From positions 960,001 through 992,000 of the forward strand of contig NZ_CP034549.1 of the NCBI RefSeq assembly GCF_003966335.1: a stretch of DNA of 32,000 bases, read 5' to 3'. The stretch is from Nonlabens ponticola (GTDB lineage: Bacteria; Bacteroidota; Bacteroidia; Flavobacteriales; Flavobacteriaceae). Position numbers and translations under genes: made by a program. The notes under the pieces were generated by a model that did no database searches, was not told the origin of the DNA, and saw only the letters and a list, made by a program, of their open reading frames with translations. Positions 4,147 to 19,148 of the stretch are shown piece after piece. Position 1 is the first letter of the stretch. Each line of letters starts with the position of its first letter.

Positions 4147-4641
4147 TTGATGGCTGTTACGCTTTCGCGAAAGCAAAATCACCACCATCATAACAACAAT
4201 TATCAAGCATTGAAAAAGGAAAAACAGCTCAAATATGACATCGCCTACTTGAAAATGGCGACGGAATGGGCGCAGCTGTCCTATTGCAAGCGACGTAAGG
4301 TAGGTGCGCTTATCGTGCGCGATCGCATGATTATAAGCGATGGTTATAATGGTACTCCTAGTGGTTTTGAGAACTACTGCGAGGACGATGATGGCTATAC
4401 AAAATGGTATGTCCTGCATGCCGAGGCTAATGCGATACTCAAAGTCGCTGGCTCTACACAATCCTGTGCTGGCGCAACCTTGTATATTACCATGTCGCCA
4501 TGCCAGAACTGTAGCAAGCTCATCCACCAGAGTGGCATTAAACGTGTAGTCTATGTAGAGGCTTACAAGGACGATAGTGGGCTGCAATTTTTGCAAAAAG
4601 CTGGCGTTCAAGTAGATCAAATCGCTAACCTAGATCAATGA
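4147..4641 (+). CDS. Deoxycytidylate (dCMP) deaminase, ComEB/CMP-dCMP deaminase zinc-binding family
   Basis: It has the HAEANAI and PCQNCSKLI zinc-ligand motifs and YNGTPSGFEN. The start is uncertain. The first 21 codons (MMAVTLSRKQNHHHHNNNYQA) are encoded by palindromic repeat copy 2 and its tail. An in-frame TTG at 4210 would give (M)KKEKQLKYDIAYLKMATEW, which looks like a typical N-terminus. Confidence 0.9.
   Translation: MMAVTLSRKQNHHHHNNNYQALKKEKQLKYDIAYLKMATEWAQLSYCKRRKVGALIVRDRMIISDGYNGTPSGFENYCEDDDGYTKWYVLHAEANAILKVAGSTQSCAGATLYITMSPCQNCSKLIHQSGIKRVVYVEAYKDDSGLQFLQKAGVQVDQIANLDQ
4161..4189 (+). repeat. Palindromic repeat copy 2, extended form: GCTTTCGCGAAAGC-N7-CCACCATC
   Basis: Core at 4161-4174, 7-nt spacer aaaatca, then CCACCATC at 4182-4189. 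It lies between HupE/UreJ and the conserved part of the dCMP deaminase. Confidence 0.95.
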
Positions 4642-6218
4642 AAAAACGCTACATCTTTTATCCCTTATTCCTAGGACTTTTTATGGCCGCTGGTATCCTG
4701 CTAGGTCATTATTTGTCTTATAATGGAATGGATAATAGTTTGATGGCGACCACCAGTGTGCAAAAACGTAAACTCAACAGGCTTATCGATATCATCGACC
4801 AGCGATACGTGGATGAGGTCAACACTGATAGCATTGTAGATGTCACAGTAAACGATATTCTAGGAAATCTCGATCCACATAGTGTTTACATACCCAACGA
4901 TCAGGCAGCCGATGCTGCTACAGATTTGCGCGGGAATTTCGTGGGTATCGGTATAAGGTATTTCGTTAATCAGGATACCATTTCAGTACTCTCAACTATT
5001 AAGGATGGACCCAGTCGTGAGGCAGGCATAAAGAGTGGCGACAAGATTCTCTATCTAGACGGGCAACCATTATTTGGAGAAGATAAGCTAAGCACTGATG
5101 CGTTAAAAGGTGAAAAAGGAAGCGAGATCACATTAGGTGTATTGCAACCTGGATTTGATGAGATCATCAATGTTCCTGTAACTCGCGGTAATGTTGCTAT
5201 TGAGAGCATTGACGCTGCCTACATGCTTACCGATAAGTTAGGTTACATAAAGGTCAACCGCTTTGCAGAAACTACTACCGAAGAGTTTGACGTAGCGATT
5301 GAGAAATTAAAAAATGAAGGTGCGAGCGAAATCGCGGTAGATTTAAGAGATAATTCTGGTGGTGTTCTAAGTGCAGCACTTAGCATGGCAGATGAATTCC
5401 TGCGTGAAGATCAATTGATCCTATTTCAAAAGGATCGAGAAAACCAGCGTAAGAACAGTTATGCTTCTAGCGATGGAGATTTTGAAGATAAGCAGGTTTA
5501 TATCTTGATAAACGAGAATAGTGCGAGTGCCAGCGAGATTGTTGCCGGTGCGTTGCAGGATAATGATAAGGGCACCATTATAGGTCGCCGCAGCTTTGGT
5601 AAAGGTCTTGTACAACAGGAAATGCAATTGGGCGATGGTAGTGCGGTGCGCATCACGGTTGCTAGATATTACACGCCTACGGGTCGCAGCATTCAGCGAC
5701 CATATGACACAGGTAACGAGGACTATTATAACGAGTACATTGAGCGTTTTGAAAATGGAGAGATGCAGGATGAAAATAATATTGAGGTAAACGATTCTCT
5801 AAAATTCACCACGCCAGCTGGTAAGGTCGTTTACGGCGGTGGTGGCATTATTCCAGATGTGTTTGTTCCAGCACCTTCAAGTTTTGCAGAACAAACGTTG
5901 GAGTATTTTGCAAGAACAGGTTATGCCGATCGTATCGCTAACGATTTTCTACAAAATGAAGGCAAGGATTTGAGAAAGTTACCAAAAAACGAGTTTATTG
6001 AGAACTATAAGATACCACGCAGTTTGATTGATGAGTTCATGGCAAGTGCTAGAAGAAATCAGCGGTCACTGCGCTTGAATAAATACCGGGATTATCTTGC
6101 ATTATTGCTCAAAGCATCGCTGGCCGAGCAATTATACGGTACTGATGTGAAAATAATGATGCTCAACTCTCAAGACACCATGATTCTTAAACTAAAAGAA
6201 TTGAGCGCAGCAAACTAA
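4638..6218 (+). CDS. S41 family C-terminal processing peptidase (Ctp/Prc-like) with PDZ domain
   Basis: 526 aa with an N-terminal TM anchor and a PDZ-like region (GIGIRY...GPSREAGIKSGDKILYLDG). The catalytic region is NENSASASEIVAGALQD...GRRSFGKGLVQ. Its ATG overlaps the deaminase stop (ATGA at 4638-4641), which suggests translational coupling. Confidence 0.92.
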   Translation: MKKRYIFYPLFLGLFMAAGILLGHYLSYNGMDNSLMATTSVQKRKLNRLIDIIDQRYVDEVNTDSIVDVTVNDILGNLDPHSVYIPNDQAADAATDLRGNFVGIGIRYFVNQDTISVLSTIKDGPSREAGIKSGDKILYLDGQPLFGEDKLSTDALKGEKGSEITLGVLQPGFDEIINVPVTRGNVAIESIDAAYMLTDKLGYIKVNRFAETTTEEFDVAIEKLKNEGASEIAVDLRDNSGGVLSAALSMADEFLREDQLILFQKDRENQRKNSYASSDGDFEDKQVYILINENSASASEIVAGALQDNDKGTIIGRRSFGKGLVQQEMQLGDGSAVRITVARYYTPTGRSIQRPYDTGNEDYYNEYIERFENGEMQDENNIEVNDSLKFTTPAGKVVYGGGGIIPDVFVPAPSSFAEQTLEYFARTGYADRIANDFLQNEGKDLRKLPKNEFIENYKIPRSLIDEFMASARRNQRSLRLNKYRDYLALLLKASLAEQLYGTDVKIMMLNSQDTMILKLKELSAAN

Positions 6219-6412
6219 GATTCCTTACGCTCCTTTATTTTATAGGACATCAATAAAATACTGAGTAGAATAATACCACACAGCGCTGCTATAATGCTTA
6301 TCACAGCAATTTGACTATCACCATATAAGATGTTTGAAAAGTCCAGCTTCAAGGCATTAAAAACAATGCTTGCGACGGCTAGCGCCATCAGAACATAAAC
6401 GAGGTACTTCAT
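6215..6412 (-). CDS. Small hypothetical membrane protein (two predicted TM helices)
   Basis: 65-aa ORF with two hydrophobic stretches. It lies 2 nt downstream of the MarC-family gene on the same strand. I recognise no family. Confidence 0.5.
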   Translation of the reverse strand: MKYLVYVLMALAVASIVFNALKLDFSNILYGDSQIAVISIIAALCGIILLSILLMSYKIKERKES

Positions 6413-6414
6413 AA

Positions 6415-7017
6415 TTAAAAGAGTTCTTTAATGTTAGTCGCAAATAGCTTTACAGCTATCGCCAGCAAGATAACACCGAAGATTTTTCTAACCACATTGA
6501 TCCCTTGTTTTCCTAGGACTTTCTCAATTCGTCCAGAGTTCTTGAGTACTATGTACACAAATAAGATGTTGACCAAAATCGCGATTATGATGTTCACCGC
6601 GGCATATTCTGATCTCAAGGAAAGTACAGAGGTAAGCGTACCGGCACCAGCAATCAAAGGGAAAGCGATAGGAATGATGGCCGCGGTTTCTGGCTGATCA
6701 TCCTTGTATAGTTGTACACCTAGAATCATCTCGAGCGCAATAAAAAAGATGATAAAAGCACCAGCTACTGCAAAGGAGTTGACGTCAATCCCAATAAGCG
6801 ACAGCATGCTCTCACCCACAAACATGAATACAATCATCAATAGTCCAGCAACGACACTAGCTTTTTCACTTTGAATGTGACCTACCTTGCGTCGCAGATC
6901 CACTATTATAGGAATACTGCCCACGATATCAATCACGGCAAAGAGTATCATACTTGCAGTAAAGATCTCTTTGAAATCTATGGCAATAAAAAAGTCAGAA
7001 ATCAGGCTAAAATTCAT
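6415..7017 (-). CDS. MarC family (UPF0056/NAAT) integral membrane protein
   Basis: Polytopic membrane protein with MarC-like segments (LFAVIDIVGSIPII, IPIAFPLIAGAGTLTSV). I prefer the ATG at 7017 (MNFSLISDF...) over the track's TTG at 7041. Confidence 0.85.
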   Translation of the reverse strand: MNFSLISDFFIAIDFKEIFTASMILFAVIDIVGSIPIIVDLRRKVGHIQSEKASVVAGLLMIVFMFVGESMLSLIGIDVNSFAVAGAFIIFFIALEMILGVQLYKDDQPETAAIIPIAFPLIAGAGTLTSVLSLRSEYAAVNIIIAILVNILFVYIVLKNSGRIEKVLGKQGINVVRKIFGVILLAIAVKLFATNIKELF

Positions 7018-7342
7018 ATCACGCTTTTTTTCGGCGTGCAAAAGTACTGCCTTTAAGTAGATTAGAAACCACCTGTAAAAGTTAAGTTATGATTAAATAA
7101 CAGATGCCAGTTAGCGTTAATTAGTTGTCAGTTTCCAGTCACCAGTTTTTACTTGTCAAACTCTCATGTCTCTTTGATCATATTCCACAATTACTTGAAA
7201 AAGAAAGTCAGAATTATGACGTTTTGGGTTTTGTTGATTGATTTGTTGAAGCTGCAACATTTTTTTATTGAATATCATGGTCGAATTATTCTGGCAATTT
7301 TAACTACGAGATAGCTCTCGACTGCGCTCGAGCAAGCATCTT

Positions 7343-7438
7343 AACTAACTAACTAACTAACTAACTAACTAACTAACTAACTAACTAACTAACTAACTAA
7401 CTAACTAACTAACTAACTAACTAACTAACTAACTAACT
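7343..7438. repeat. Perfect tetranucleotide microsatellite (AACT)24
   Basis: I counted 24 uninterrupted AACT units (96 bp). Decayed units follow (caccaactctccaactcacttactaa). The tract has stop codons in all six frames. Confidence 0.99.
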
Positions 7439-7475
7439 CACCAACTCTCCAACTCACTTACTAAAAACCTACTCG

Positions 7476-18661: not shown

Positions 18662-18669
18662 TATTTTTG
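18662..18669 (+). promoter_or_regulatory. Candidate Bacteroidota -7 promoter box (TATTTTTG) for trxA
   Basis: It matches TAnnTTTG and lies 25 nt upstream of the trxA ATG. Confidence 0.3.
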
Positions 18670-18693
18670 TTTATAACATTAAAGTAGAATATT

Positions 18694-19014
18694 ATGGCAT
18701 TAGAAATAACAGACGCAAATTTTGAAGAGACCGTACTCAAGAGTGATAAGCCAGTATTGGTGGACTTTTGGGCAGCATGGTGTGGACCATGTCGCATGGT
18801 AGGACCTATCATTGATGAGGTTTCTGAGGAATACACAGATAAAGCCGTTGTAGGCAAAATGGACGTGGATGCAAACCAAGAGTTTGCTGCAAAATATGGA
18901 GTGCGCAACATTCCTACAGTTTTGGTTTTTCAAAATGGTGAGGTTGTAGGACGCCAGGTAGGTGTCGCTCCTAAAAACGCATACACAGACGCATTGGATT
19001 CCTTACTCAACTAG
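18694..19014 (+). CDS. trxA: Thioredoxin
   Basis: 106 aa with the canonical WCGPC active site (VDFWAAWCGPCRM) and the thioredoxin fold signature IPTVLVFQNGE. Confidence 0.97.
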   Translation: MALEITDANFEETVLKSDKPVLVDFWAAWCGPCRMVGPIIDEVSEEYTDKAVVGKMDVDANQEFAAKYGVRNIPTVLVFQNGEVVGRQVGVAPKNAYTDALDSLLN

Positions 19015-19036
19015 AATCTATTATTTATAGCATTGA

Positions 19037-19062
19037 GCCTGTCCATTTGGACGGGCTTTTTT
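19037..19062 (+). terminator. Rho-independent terminator after trxA
   Basis: GCCTGTCC-attt-GGACGGGC followed by TTTTTT. Confidence 0.75.
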
Positions 19063-19119
19063 ATGTGGTAAGATCAAACCTTGACACTCTTTATCAGTAA
19101 AATTGATCGTAGCTATTTT

Positions 19120-19148
19120 GCTTTCGCGAAAGCTGAAACGCCACCATC
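19120..19148 (+). repeat. Palindromic repeat copy 5, extended form, intergenic upstream of the oxidoreductase gene
   Basis: Core at 19120-19133, 7-nt spacer tgaaacg, then CCACCATC at 19141-19148, followed by tccATAACAtaa. Copy 2 has ATAACAacaa at the equivalent place. Confidence 0.95.

Follow-up and report, generated by a model that had tools for sequence, protein, structure and literature searches.

To our knowledge, oligomers that are made by base substitution and iterated hundreds of times in a genome are rare and fall into essentially three groups: the uptake signal sequence (USS) of Pasteurellaceae, the DNA uptake sequence (DUS) of Neisseriaceae, and the highly iterated palindrome (HIP1, GCGATCGC) of cyanobacteria. 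Each of the three opened questions on transformation, repair bias, or chromosome organisation. USS copies that fall in coding sequence use reading frames giving tolerable peptides, and we know of no uptake signal in Bacteroidota. HIP1 is palindromic, is conserved within open reading frames (ORFs) and at orthologous sites, and has no gene-level role (PMC5861425, PMC4390886); a recent preprint links it to the efficiency of natural transformation (bioRxiv 10.1101/2024.09.10.611283). Here we describe the palindrome GCTTTCGCGAAAGC, which recurs in a 32,000-nt stretch of Nonlabens ponticola DNA (contig NZ_CP034549.1, positions 960,001 to 992,000; hereafter the window) and, iterated throughout the genome, is a signature site specific to the Nonlabens–Dokdonia group of Flavobacteriaceae. 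A literature search for the palindrome sequence found no paper containing it, and one on flavobacterial iterated palindromes or uptake sequences gave no relevant result, the iterated-palindrome papers all being cyanobacterial; the palindrome is apparently not previously described.

Unit, abundance, and distribution of the palindrome

The window contains seven exact copies of GCTTTCGCGAAAGC, starting at positions 1589, 4161, 12602, 14296, 19120, 24550, and 30469, where shuffled sequence gives an expectation of 0.14, and it contains no variant with one or two mismatches. A census of 921 kb yielded 234 perfect copies; a further 14 had a single mismatch, 10 had two, and 29 had three, the last being near chance level by our own estimate. 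The commonest variants are C-to-T products at CpG, namely GCTTTtGCGAAAGC, which makes up 4 of the 14 single-mismatch variants, and the commonest double variant. Nearly every TTCGCGAA sits in a full 14-mer, and 74% of copies extend to the 16-mer CGCTTTCGCGAAAGCG (CGC...GCG); the word counts are 252 for TTCGCGAA, 241 for the 14-mer, 179 for the 16-mer, and 26 for the 18-mer. The unit is the 14-mer GCTTTCGCGAAAGC.

A preliminary description of the window had drawn attention to three copies that are followed, at a fixed distance, by the same word, CCACCATC (the tail). A scan of 185,579 species genomes with the pattern palindrome-N8-CACCATC, for which about 0.3 chance matches are expected, returned at least 120 loci. 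Nearly all of these belong to Nonlabens, Dokdonia, and uncultured relatives in the Flavobacteriaceae; they fall on many contigs and are scattered along megabase-scale scaffolds. In 868 kb of the scanned loci there are 101 extra palindromes not picked out by the tail pattern (hereafter unselected copies, with unselected flanks), at a density of 1 per 5–12 kb in every assembly. Extrapolation from this density gives roughly a few hundred copies per genome, where base composition leads to an expectation of about 0.005, so that the over-representation is estimated at about 10^5-fold. Specifically, Nonlabens tegetincola (contig L119) has 5 copies in 21.7 kb around dnaE and the assembly contig L242 has 7 in 21.8 kb, and the count is zero in two other Flavobacteriaceae dnaE loci (L243 and L244). 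One 2.4-Mb scaffold carries copies at 48 kb, 1.17 Mb, 1.24 Mb, and 2.09 Mb, and copies are present on all other sampled contigs. A local parS-like cluster near the origin was considered and rejected, because the copies are spread over contigs and scaffold positions.

Three tailed matches lie outside Nonlabens and Dokdonia. The match in a binned Weeksellaceae genome (L221) has a flank nearly identical to that of the Nonlabens contig L191 and may be a mis-binned contig; the match in Rubripirellula (L150, GC 0.57) looks like a chance match; and the match in Maribacter antarcticus (L153) has typical flanks and is a single copy in 8 kb.

The palindrome is also present in phage DNA. In a plain 14-mer scan of viral contigs, many of the matches listed are chance matches from high-GC phages. 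Seven low-GC contigs of the IMG/VR database (L089, L053, L114, L117, L022, L036, and L086) carry two to three perfect palindromes with host-type flanks. One of them, L089 (IMGVR_UViG_3300031224_000073), has three perfect copies in 12 kb and encodes a portal, a major capsid protein, a protease, a head-tail adaptor, and an HNH nuclease, and is therefore a genuine tailed-phage fragment.

Formation by substitution and conservation at orthologous sites

The copy at 14296 lies in dnaE, in a segment (YFxxF[SRK]ExNPxxI) that every genus of the DnaE alignment possesses, without gaps. The codons of the window, with the palindrome, read AGC TTT CGC GAA AGC AAC CCA ACC ACC ATC; the corresponding codons without the palindrome read AAA TTC AAA CAA AGC AAC CCA TCT ACT ATC in N. 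tegetincola (L119) and AAC TTT TCC GAA AAT AAT CCA CAG GAA ATC in L244. Between the window and N. tegetincola, 7 of the 14 palindrome positions differ, with zero indels; the seven substitutions are clustered within these 14 nt, and the adjacent flanking codons are unchanged. A second dnaE site, encoding LSRKH, has the palindrome in L119, L182, L186, and L242 and lacks it in the window and in L188, again in ungapped alignment. Gain and loss at the two sites are independent among species. Because the codon alignments against motif-free orthologues are ungapped, the palindrome was made by substitution, not by insertion. In N. tegetincola and three long-contig assemblies, dnaE is called as two consecutive ORFs, with a break after about 576–764 aa (L119, 10001–14346; L242 to L244, 10001 to about 14400); these splits are probably assembly frameshifts, though their recurrence in one gene is odd.

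Base substitution creates copies in situ at any place, coding or non-coding, where the local sequence tolerates them, and the copies are then kept perfect. Long open frames contain 161 of the 234 census copies, and ATG-started ORFs contain 159 of the 231 that can be classified. Coding copies use all three frames (AFAKA, 97; LSRK, 35; FRES, 29), which led us to reject a protein-level motif. Intergenic copies are about 3-fold enriched over coding copies and are divided among codirectional, divergent, and convergent spacers as 45/19/8, matching the proportions of spacer length exactly; a promoter or terminator role was rejected on the ground of this proportionality in all three gene configurations. 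Rfam identified no family at the palindromes, its sole match in the window being a sub-threshold L10 leader at 13403–13535 (E = 0.73). The use of three frames, the proportional intergenic distribution, and the lack of an Rfam family together place the signal at the level of DNA, not of protein or transcript.

The preliminary description had read the element as a mobile or copied unit of 30–45 bp with polarity, of the kind represented by repetitive extragenic palindromic (REP) sequences and bacterial interspersed mosaic elements (BIMEs), by miniature inverted-repeat transposable elements (MITEs), or by recombination sites, and had suggested looking for target-site duplications. This reading is not supported: the sites align without gaps, target-site duplications are lacking, and the two arms show no covariation. 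In particular, a two-dimensional scan of boundary pairs 0–40 nt on each side of 240 copies found no target-site duplication, the best 4-mer score being 7 matches against a mean of 1.2, with no consistent boundary. Arms of one copy are complementary at 7.5 of 20 positions, as compared to 7.6 of 20 for randomly paired arms, with no better folding energy, and a long hairpin or cruciform was rejected because arms within a copy are no more complementary than permuted pairs. The hundreds of copies and a core without spacer also differ from what defines a site-specific recombination site (dif, att, or attC), which is present once or a few times per replicon, with a 6–8-bp spacer between two recombinase arms.

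The AFAKA reading recurs at the ends of N-terminal signal peptides, in the window (24550–24563, − strand), at position 5115 of L119, and at about 15 other loci. In the amylase sequence ...VFAFAKAQQ, the palindrome supplies an Ala-X-Ala signal-peptidase-type site. The AFAKA sites show how proteins accommodate a motif that acts at the DNA level.

The copies of the window and their tails, with their genetic surroundings, are as follows.

1589–1602: palindrome copy 1, extended to the 16-mer CGCTTTCGCGAAAGCG, inside the ORF of a TonB-dependent receptor (1347–3470, + strand)
4161–4174: palindrome copy 2, intergenic, 28 nt past the stop of ORF 3546–4133
4182–4189, + strand: tail CCACCATC of copy 2, followed by ATAACA
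12587–12593, − strand: degenerate tail AAAAATC of copy 3, at offset +9 to +15
12602–12615: palindrome copy 3, intergenic, between the divergent nrdB (11123–12397, − strand) and ORF 12945–13466 (+ strand)
14296–14309: palindrome copy 4, inside dnaE (13617–18032, + strand), in the exonuclease/PHP linker, reading S-F-R-E-S
14317–14324, + strand: tail CCACCATC of copy 4, codons (A)CC ACC ATC, Thr-Thr-Ile
19120–19133: palindrome copy 5, intergenic, about 105 nt after trxA (18694–19014, + strand) and about 90 nt before ORF 19225–20241
19141–19148, + strand: tail CCACCATC of copy 5, CCACTATC at the orthologous site in L186
24550–24563: palindrome copy 6, inside the gene of a secreted alpha-amylase (21870–24623, − strand), reading A-F-A-K-A on the − strand at the end of the signal peptide
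30469–30482: palindrome copy 7, 16-mer, intergenic, between the divergent SusC gene (27409–30372, − strand) and a LacI-type regulator gene (30512–31531, + strand)

Three copies are thus intragenic (TonB-dependent receptor, dnaE, and amylase) and four are intergenic. Copy 1 lies between the signal peptide and the plug domain of the receptor and reads S-L-S-R-K-R, in the LSRK frame, and copy 2 lies 36 nt upstream of the likely TTG start (4210) of a dCMP deaminase gene. The ORFs of the window are those of a Flavobacteriaceae chromosome: a SusC/SusD/SusE-amylase locus with a LacI regulator, nrdAB, dCMP deaminase, a TonB-dependent receptor, and trxA. The window dnaE is fused to an N-terminal exonuclease and is a single intact ORF of 1471 aa; by DnaE, the closest named relative is N. 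tegetincola, at 73% identity. A (TAAC) microsatellite of about 31 units with 89% matches occupies 7342–7464, between ORF 6415–7041 (− strand) and ORF 7481–8074 (+ strand), and is long enough that its length could vary from strain to strain.

The palindrome does not vary at three orthologous intergenic sites where the surrounding columns are only 54–77% identical. Specifically, the copy 2 palindrome is perfectly kept at the orthologous site of two Nonlabens genomes; the copy 3 palindrome is kept, together with a GTCATTT flank, in L188; and the copy 5 palindrome is at the same place in L119 and L186, with a three-mismatch relic in L188. The palindrome of copy 6, in the amylase signal peptide, has a counterpart at the same position of the N. 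tegetincola orthologue. The core is perfect across species whose dnaE proteins are 65–78% identical.

A breakpoint in gene content abuts copy 5: an extra oxidoreductase gene (19225–20241) follows directly after the palindrome in the window (19120–20424), and the order in relatives is trxA, palindrome, DUF58 gene (L119, 14773–14960; L186, 1440–1965).

Extended flank consensus and tail

The palindrome has genuine sequence context beyond the 14-mer, as proposed in the preliminary description, in the form of an extended consensus on both sides. C at −1 and G at +1 are present in 83–91% of copies (C at −1 in 86%), followed by G-N-A-A-T and then by about 15 further positions that are nearly G-free on the 3′ side, corresponding to nearly C-free on the 5′ side. 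The 3′ flank has 0–9% G for about 19 nt, on both sides of the palindrome and in every reading frame, most strongly in unselected intergenic copies. Since the pattern is found in every frame and on both sides, it is a property of the DNA. The flank preferences are dyad-symmetric at the population level and span about 44–50 bp, and we agree with the earlier reading that a simple symmetric operator is the wrong model. Among 240 unselected flanks, the trinucleotide ATC peaks at +4 (28 flanks), +10 (18), and +13 (24), where the baseline is about 6; measured from the dyad, the +4 peak is roughly one helical turn away and the +13 peak roughly two. At +10 the most frequent words are ACCATC and AAAATC, the latter being the second commonest variant of the outer word (8 of 240 flanks). 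From the ATC peaks and the top words at +10, the tail emerges as the word that best fits the outer portion of one half-site.

The observations in the window that led to the proposal of a tail are confirmed. The three tailed copies (2, 4, and 5) have CCACCATC on the + strand at an offset of exactly 7 nt, and the degenerate tail of copy 3 is AAAAATC on the − strand at the same offset. The continuation ATAACA, reported for two copies, directly follows the tail of copy 2, at 4190, and comes after the tail of copy 5 with a 3-nt insert (TCC) in between. The whole window contains four occurrences of CCACCATC, where 0.51 are expected, and three of the four are palindrome tails. With flank-specific base frequencies (about 2 × 10^-4 per flank), the chance of three such 8-mers in 14 oriented flanks is about 2 × 10^-9.

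The expectation that CACCATC recurs at the fixed offset beyond these three copies holds in the scan, where at least 120 loci stand against about 0.3 expected, so that the tail is genuine and lineage-wide. The exact tail is nevertheless a minority form, occurring in 0 of 226 unselected flanks outside the window. There are at least 6–8 tailed copies per genome, where independent flank positions predict fewer than one, and the tail is absent from IMG/VR viral contigs. The tail is partly conserved at orthologous sites. At the one that follows trxA, CCACCATC in the window corresponds to CCACTATC in L186 and to TCAAATAC in L119; at the site upstream of dCMP deaminase, only the ATCAT part of the tail is kept, in three species. 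The Thr-Ile codons under the tail of copy 4 are already present in genera without the palindrome. The preliminary description had also called for comparing tail orientation with transcription and replication: tails are sense in 44 cases and antisense in 43, and they divide 42 to 57 with respect to local GC skew (p = 0.23), so that neither correlation is seen. As a word of the outer flank, the tail is non-random but minor, and it has no polarity with respect to genes or to replication.

Candidate explanations and comparison with known systems

We consider it probable that the palindrome is an actively maintained signature site, made in situ by substitution, and that the tail is a word of its outer half-site; this is a general statement and does not extend to an uptake mechanism. 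The recognised unit would be a dyad-symmetric site of about 44–50 bp; the simplest assumption is that a dimeric protein binds it in its duplex form. Each half-site would comprise CGAAAGC-G-N-A-A-T followed by about 15 G-free, A/C-rich positions with ATC preferred at +4, +10, and +13, and the tail, (C)CACCATC at +8/+9 to +15, would be the best outer word, on one side. On this view, a tailed copy would be one whose outer half-site is strong on one side, and would not be a mobile unit with polarity. Because ordinary site-by-site purifying selection cannot hold hundreds of dispensable sites perfect (234:14), a recognition-dependent drive presumably keeps them so.

By analogy, and tentatively, this drive may be preferential uptake and recombination of motif-bearing DNA, of the USS/DUS type, which is preferred because of the length of the motif, its extended and phased flank, its frame tolerance, the clade 'dialect', and competence in the order. 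Coding copies of the palindrome, like those of USS, are in frames that yield tolerable peptides. Natural competence with a preference for own DNA exists in the order, in Riemerella (PMC7965970). The palindrome could then be the first uptake or recombination signal of Bacteroidota, and the first palindromic one, or else the mark of a process that writes a 14–16-nt patch in one event into chromosomal and phage DNA, a pair of possibilities that we put forward with reserve.

Several points weigh against the favoured account. The function is assigned solely by analogy, and the uptake signals known to us are not palindromic. With the exact tail in none of the 226 unselected flanks and in none of the IMG/VR contigs, the contribution of the tail to recognition must be small or lineage-variable, and the three tailed copies among the seven of the window are unexplained unless the source genome has a higher tail frequency. 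The dnaE tail coincides with pre-existing conserved Thr-Ile codons. A in the flanks shows a 3-nt periodicity that simple helical phasing does not predict. Finally, for the phage copies (L089), a repair-type drive or host mimicry is a somewhat better explanation than an uptake drive.

After uptake-driven recombination, an origin like that of HIP1 comes next, and we regard it as unlikely. The palindrome would be a by-product or target of DNA methyltransferase or mismatch-repair bias centred on the TCGCGA or CGCG in its middle, or a motif selected for a role in chromosome structure; such origins have reportedly been proposed for cyanobacterial HIP1. A perfect palindrome that is hyper-abundant in coding and non-coding DNA, generated by substitution, and kept at orthologous sites agrees with such an origin, as do the C-to-T product GCTTTtGCGAAAGC as the commonest one-mismatch variant and the occurrence of the motif in phage DNA that replicates in these hosts, which a repair bias of the host predicts. 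However, methyltransferases and Vsr-type nucleases recognise 4–8 bp, whereas specificity here extends over 14–16 bp and into the flanks as far as about 22 bp from the dyad, and TCGCGA is unremarkable outside the 14-mer (373 occurrences overall, of which about 130 are outside, compared with 276 expected from a Markov model). An array of binding sites for a chromosome-organising protein (ParB/Noc-like, SlmA-like, or MatP-like), serving for loading or anchoring, is distinctly unlikely. Its appeal lies in the 14–16-bp perfect palindrome with a TTTC...GAAA core, which resembles the parS site TGTTTCACGTGAAACA and the Noc site ATTTCCCGGGAAAT, in the tolerance of such sites within genes, and in the dyad-symmetric extended half-sites, which suit a dimer. 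Direct comparison nevertheless places the TTTC blocks 2 bp closer together than in parS or the Noc site; a density of 1 per 5–12 kb on every sampled contig is one to two orders above that of known arrays; selection on each of several hundred redundant sites should be too weak to maintain 234:14; and the motif is also in phages.

The remaining alternatives concern the tail. That CACCATC, which encodes Thr-Ile, Pro-Ser, or His-His and on the other strand Asp-Gly, is no part of the element, being a frequent A/C-rich word of a G-free flank, with the three window copies a selected fluke, we judge improbable: although the word is missing from the 226 unselected flanks and from the viral contigs, encodes conserved Thr-Ile in dnaE, and is about 3–4-fold over-represented genome-wide anyway, the 7-mer is expected, from position-specific flank frequencies, in about 6.5 × 10^-4 of flanks, or less than once per genome, where at least 6–8 are found. 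Three of 14 flanks in one window (about 2 × 10^-9), ATC at +13 in unselected flanks at 4-fold above baseline, and retention of the word at orthologous intergenic sites likewise speak against a fluke. The mobile or copied polar unit of the preliminary description, with the tail marking its orientation, is very improbable. It draws on the three same-strand tails, on the ATAACA common to two intergenic copies, on the roughly 3-fold intergenic enrichment, and on one flank that often begins with GTAA or GTAC (TTAC before the palindrome), which bears a loose resemblance to REP tetranucleotide heads and to the cleavage sites of IS200/IS605 elements. Yet about two thirds of the copies are inside ORFs, codon alignments against motif-free orthologues are ungapped, target-site duplications, covarying arms, and clusters in alternating orientation are lacking, tails are randomly oriented with respect to genes and GC skew, and, unlike in a decaying insertion family, the core is perfect across dnaE proteins of 65–78% identity. 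We give almost no credence to the tail as a Chi-like recombination hotspot acting on breaks made at the palindrome. The reverse complement of the tail, GATGGTGG, is one position off the Escherichia coli Chi site GCTGGTGG, would lie, by the geometry, on the strand ending 3′ at a break in the palindrome, and is accompanied by G/T-rich 5′ flanks, like the substrates preferred by RecA; but GATGGTGG away from palindromes has no strand skew (18 on the G-rich strand versus 15 on the C-rich strand), tail orientation is independent of GC skew, and a RecBCD-type enzyme would be unable to read a site as near as 8 nt to a DNA end.

A separate observation concerns GCTGGTGG itself. In about 0.8 Mb (L119 and L122–L242) it occurs 42 times, where composition leads to an estimate of about 7, with 39 occurrences on the locally G-rich strand and 3 on the C-rich strand; for similar G-rich words, the G-rich strand takes 55–65%. 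The window has it at 1890–1897 and 3263–3270, both on the + strand. GCTGGTGG may be a Chi-like site of these flavobacteria.

The failure of the directional-mobile-unit claim leaves a phenomenon that is unusual and experimentally tractable. The palindrome of Nonlabens and Dokdonia is unusually long, perfect, and dyad-symmetric, with a footprint of about 44–50 bp; its occurrence is limited to a clade of abundant marine flavobacteria, at least one of whose phages also carries it. An uptake signal would mean sequence-specific transformation in Bacteroidota and a handle for the genetics of Nonlabens and Dokdonia, and a repair or patch-writing drive would mean a new mutational mechanism. Either way, the palindrome offers a ready-made metagenomic marker for taxonomy and host prediction, for Nonlabens, Dokdonia, and their uncultured phages.

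With REP/BIME sequences (mobilised by REP-associated tyrosine transposases, RAYT), the palindrome shares a short palindromic repeat in hundreds of copies, intergenic enrichment, and an asymmetric flank that orients some copies. REPs, in contrast, are extragenic, imperfect, often clustered, and inserted, with a GT[AG]G head; the palindrome here is mostly intragenic and solitary, has a perfect core, shows neither insertion nor target duplication, and is not an imperfect 20–40-nt palindrome with pairing arms. Nor are there the discrete filled and empty insertions, with target-site duplication, that characterise MITEs, or, in the tail, the strong replication strand bias that characterises Chi. The parS and Noc sites of the ParB family are similar as 14–16-bp perfect palindromes with TTTC/GAAA blocks, in exact copies that are tolerated in genes. 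They differ in half-site spacing, which is 2 bp shorter here, and in number and placement, with hundreds of copies here on all contigs as compared to 1–70 placed relative to the origin; the palindrome has neither the consensus TGTTNCACGTGAAACA or ATTTCCCGGGAAAT nor a few tens of copies positioned relative to oriC.

HIP1 is a closer counterpart: a hyper-abundant perfect palindrome with a CpG core that is a restriction-type site (TCGCGA here, CGATCG in HIP1), in coding and non-coding DNA, lineage-specific, conserved at orthologous positions, and without evident gene-level function (PMC5861425). The differences are in length (14–16 bp plus about 15 biased positions per side here, as compared to 8 bp), in over-representation (about 10^5-fold here, as compared to 15–300-fold), in density, which is lower here, and in sequence and host, which are not GCGATCGC and not cyanobacterial but of another phylum. 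We know of no methyltransferase linked to the Nonlabens–Dokdonia palindrome. Relative to USS and DUS, the palindrome is a perfect 14–16 bp, whereas these are asymmetric 9–12-mers, and its density is 1 per 5–12 kb, as compared to about 1 per 1 kb. In other respects it resembles them: hundreds or more copies of one exact oligomer are spread over the genome, in and between genes; perfect copies outnumber near-misses; a weaker extended consensus surrounds the core; related genera share a lineage 'dialect'; and, as in USS and DUS, the exact oligomer is massively over-represented and has accumulated by substitution, in tolerant positions and in frames with tolerable peptides.

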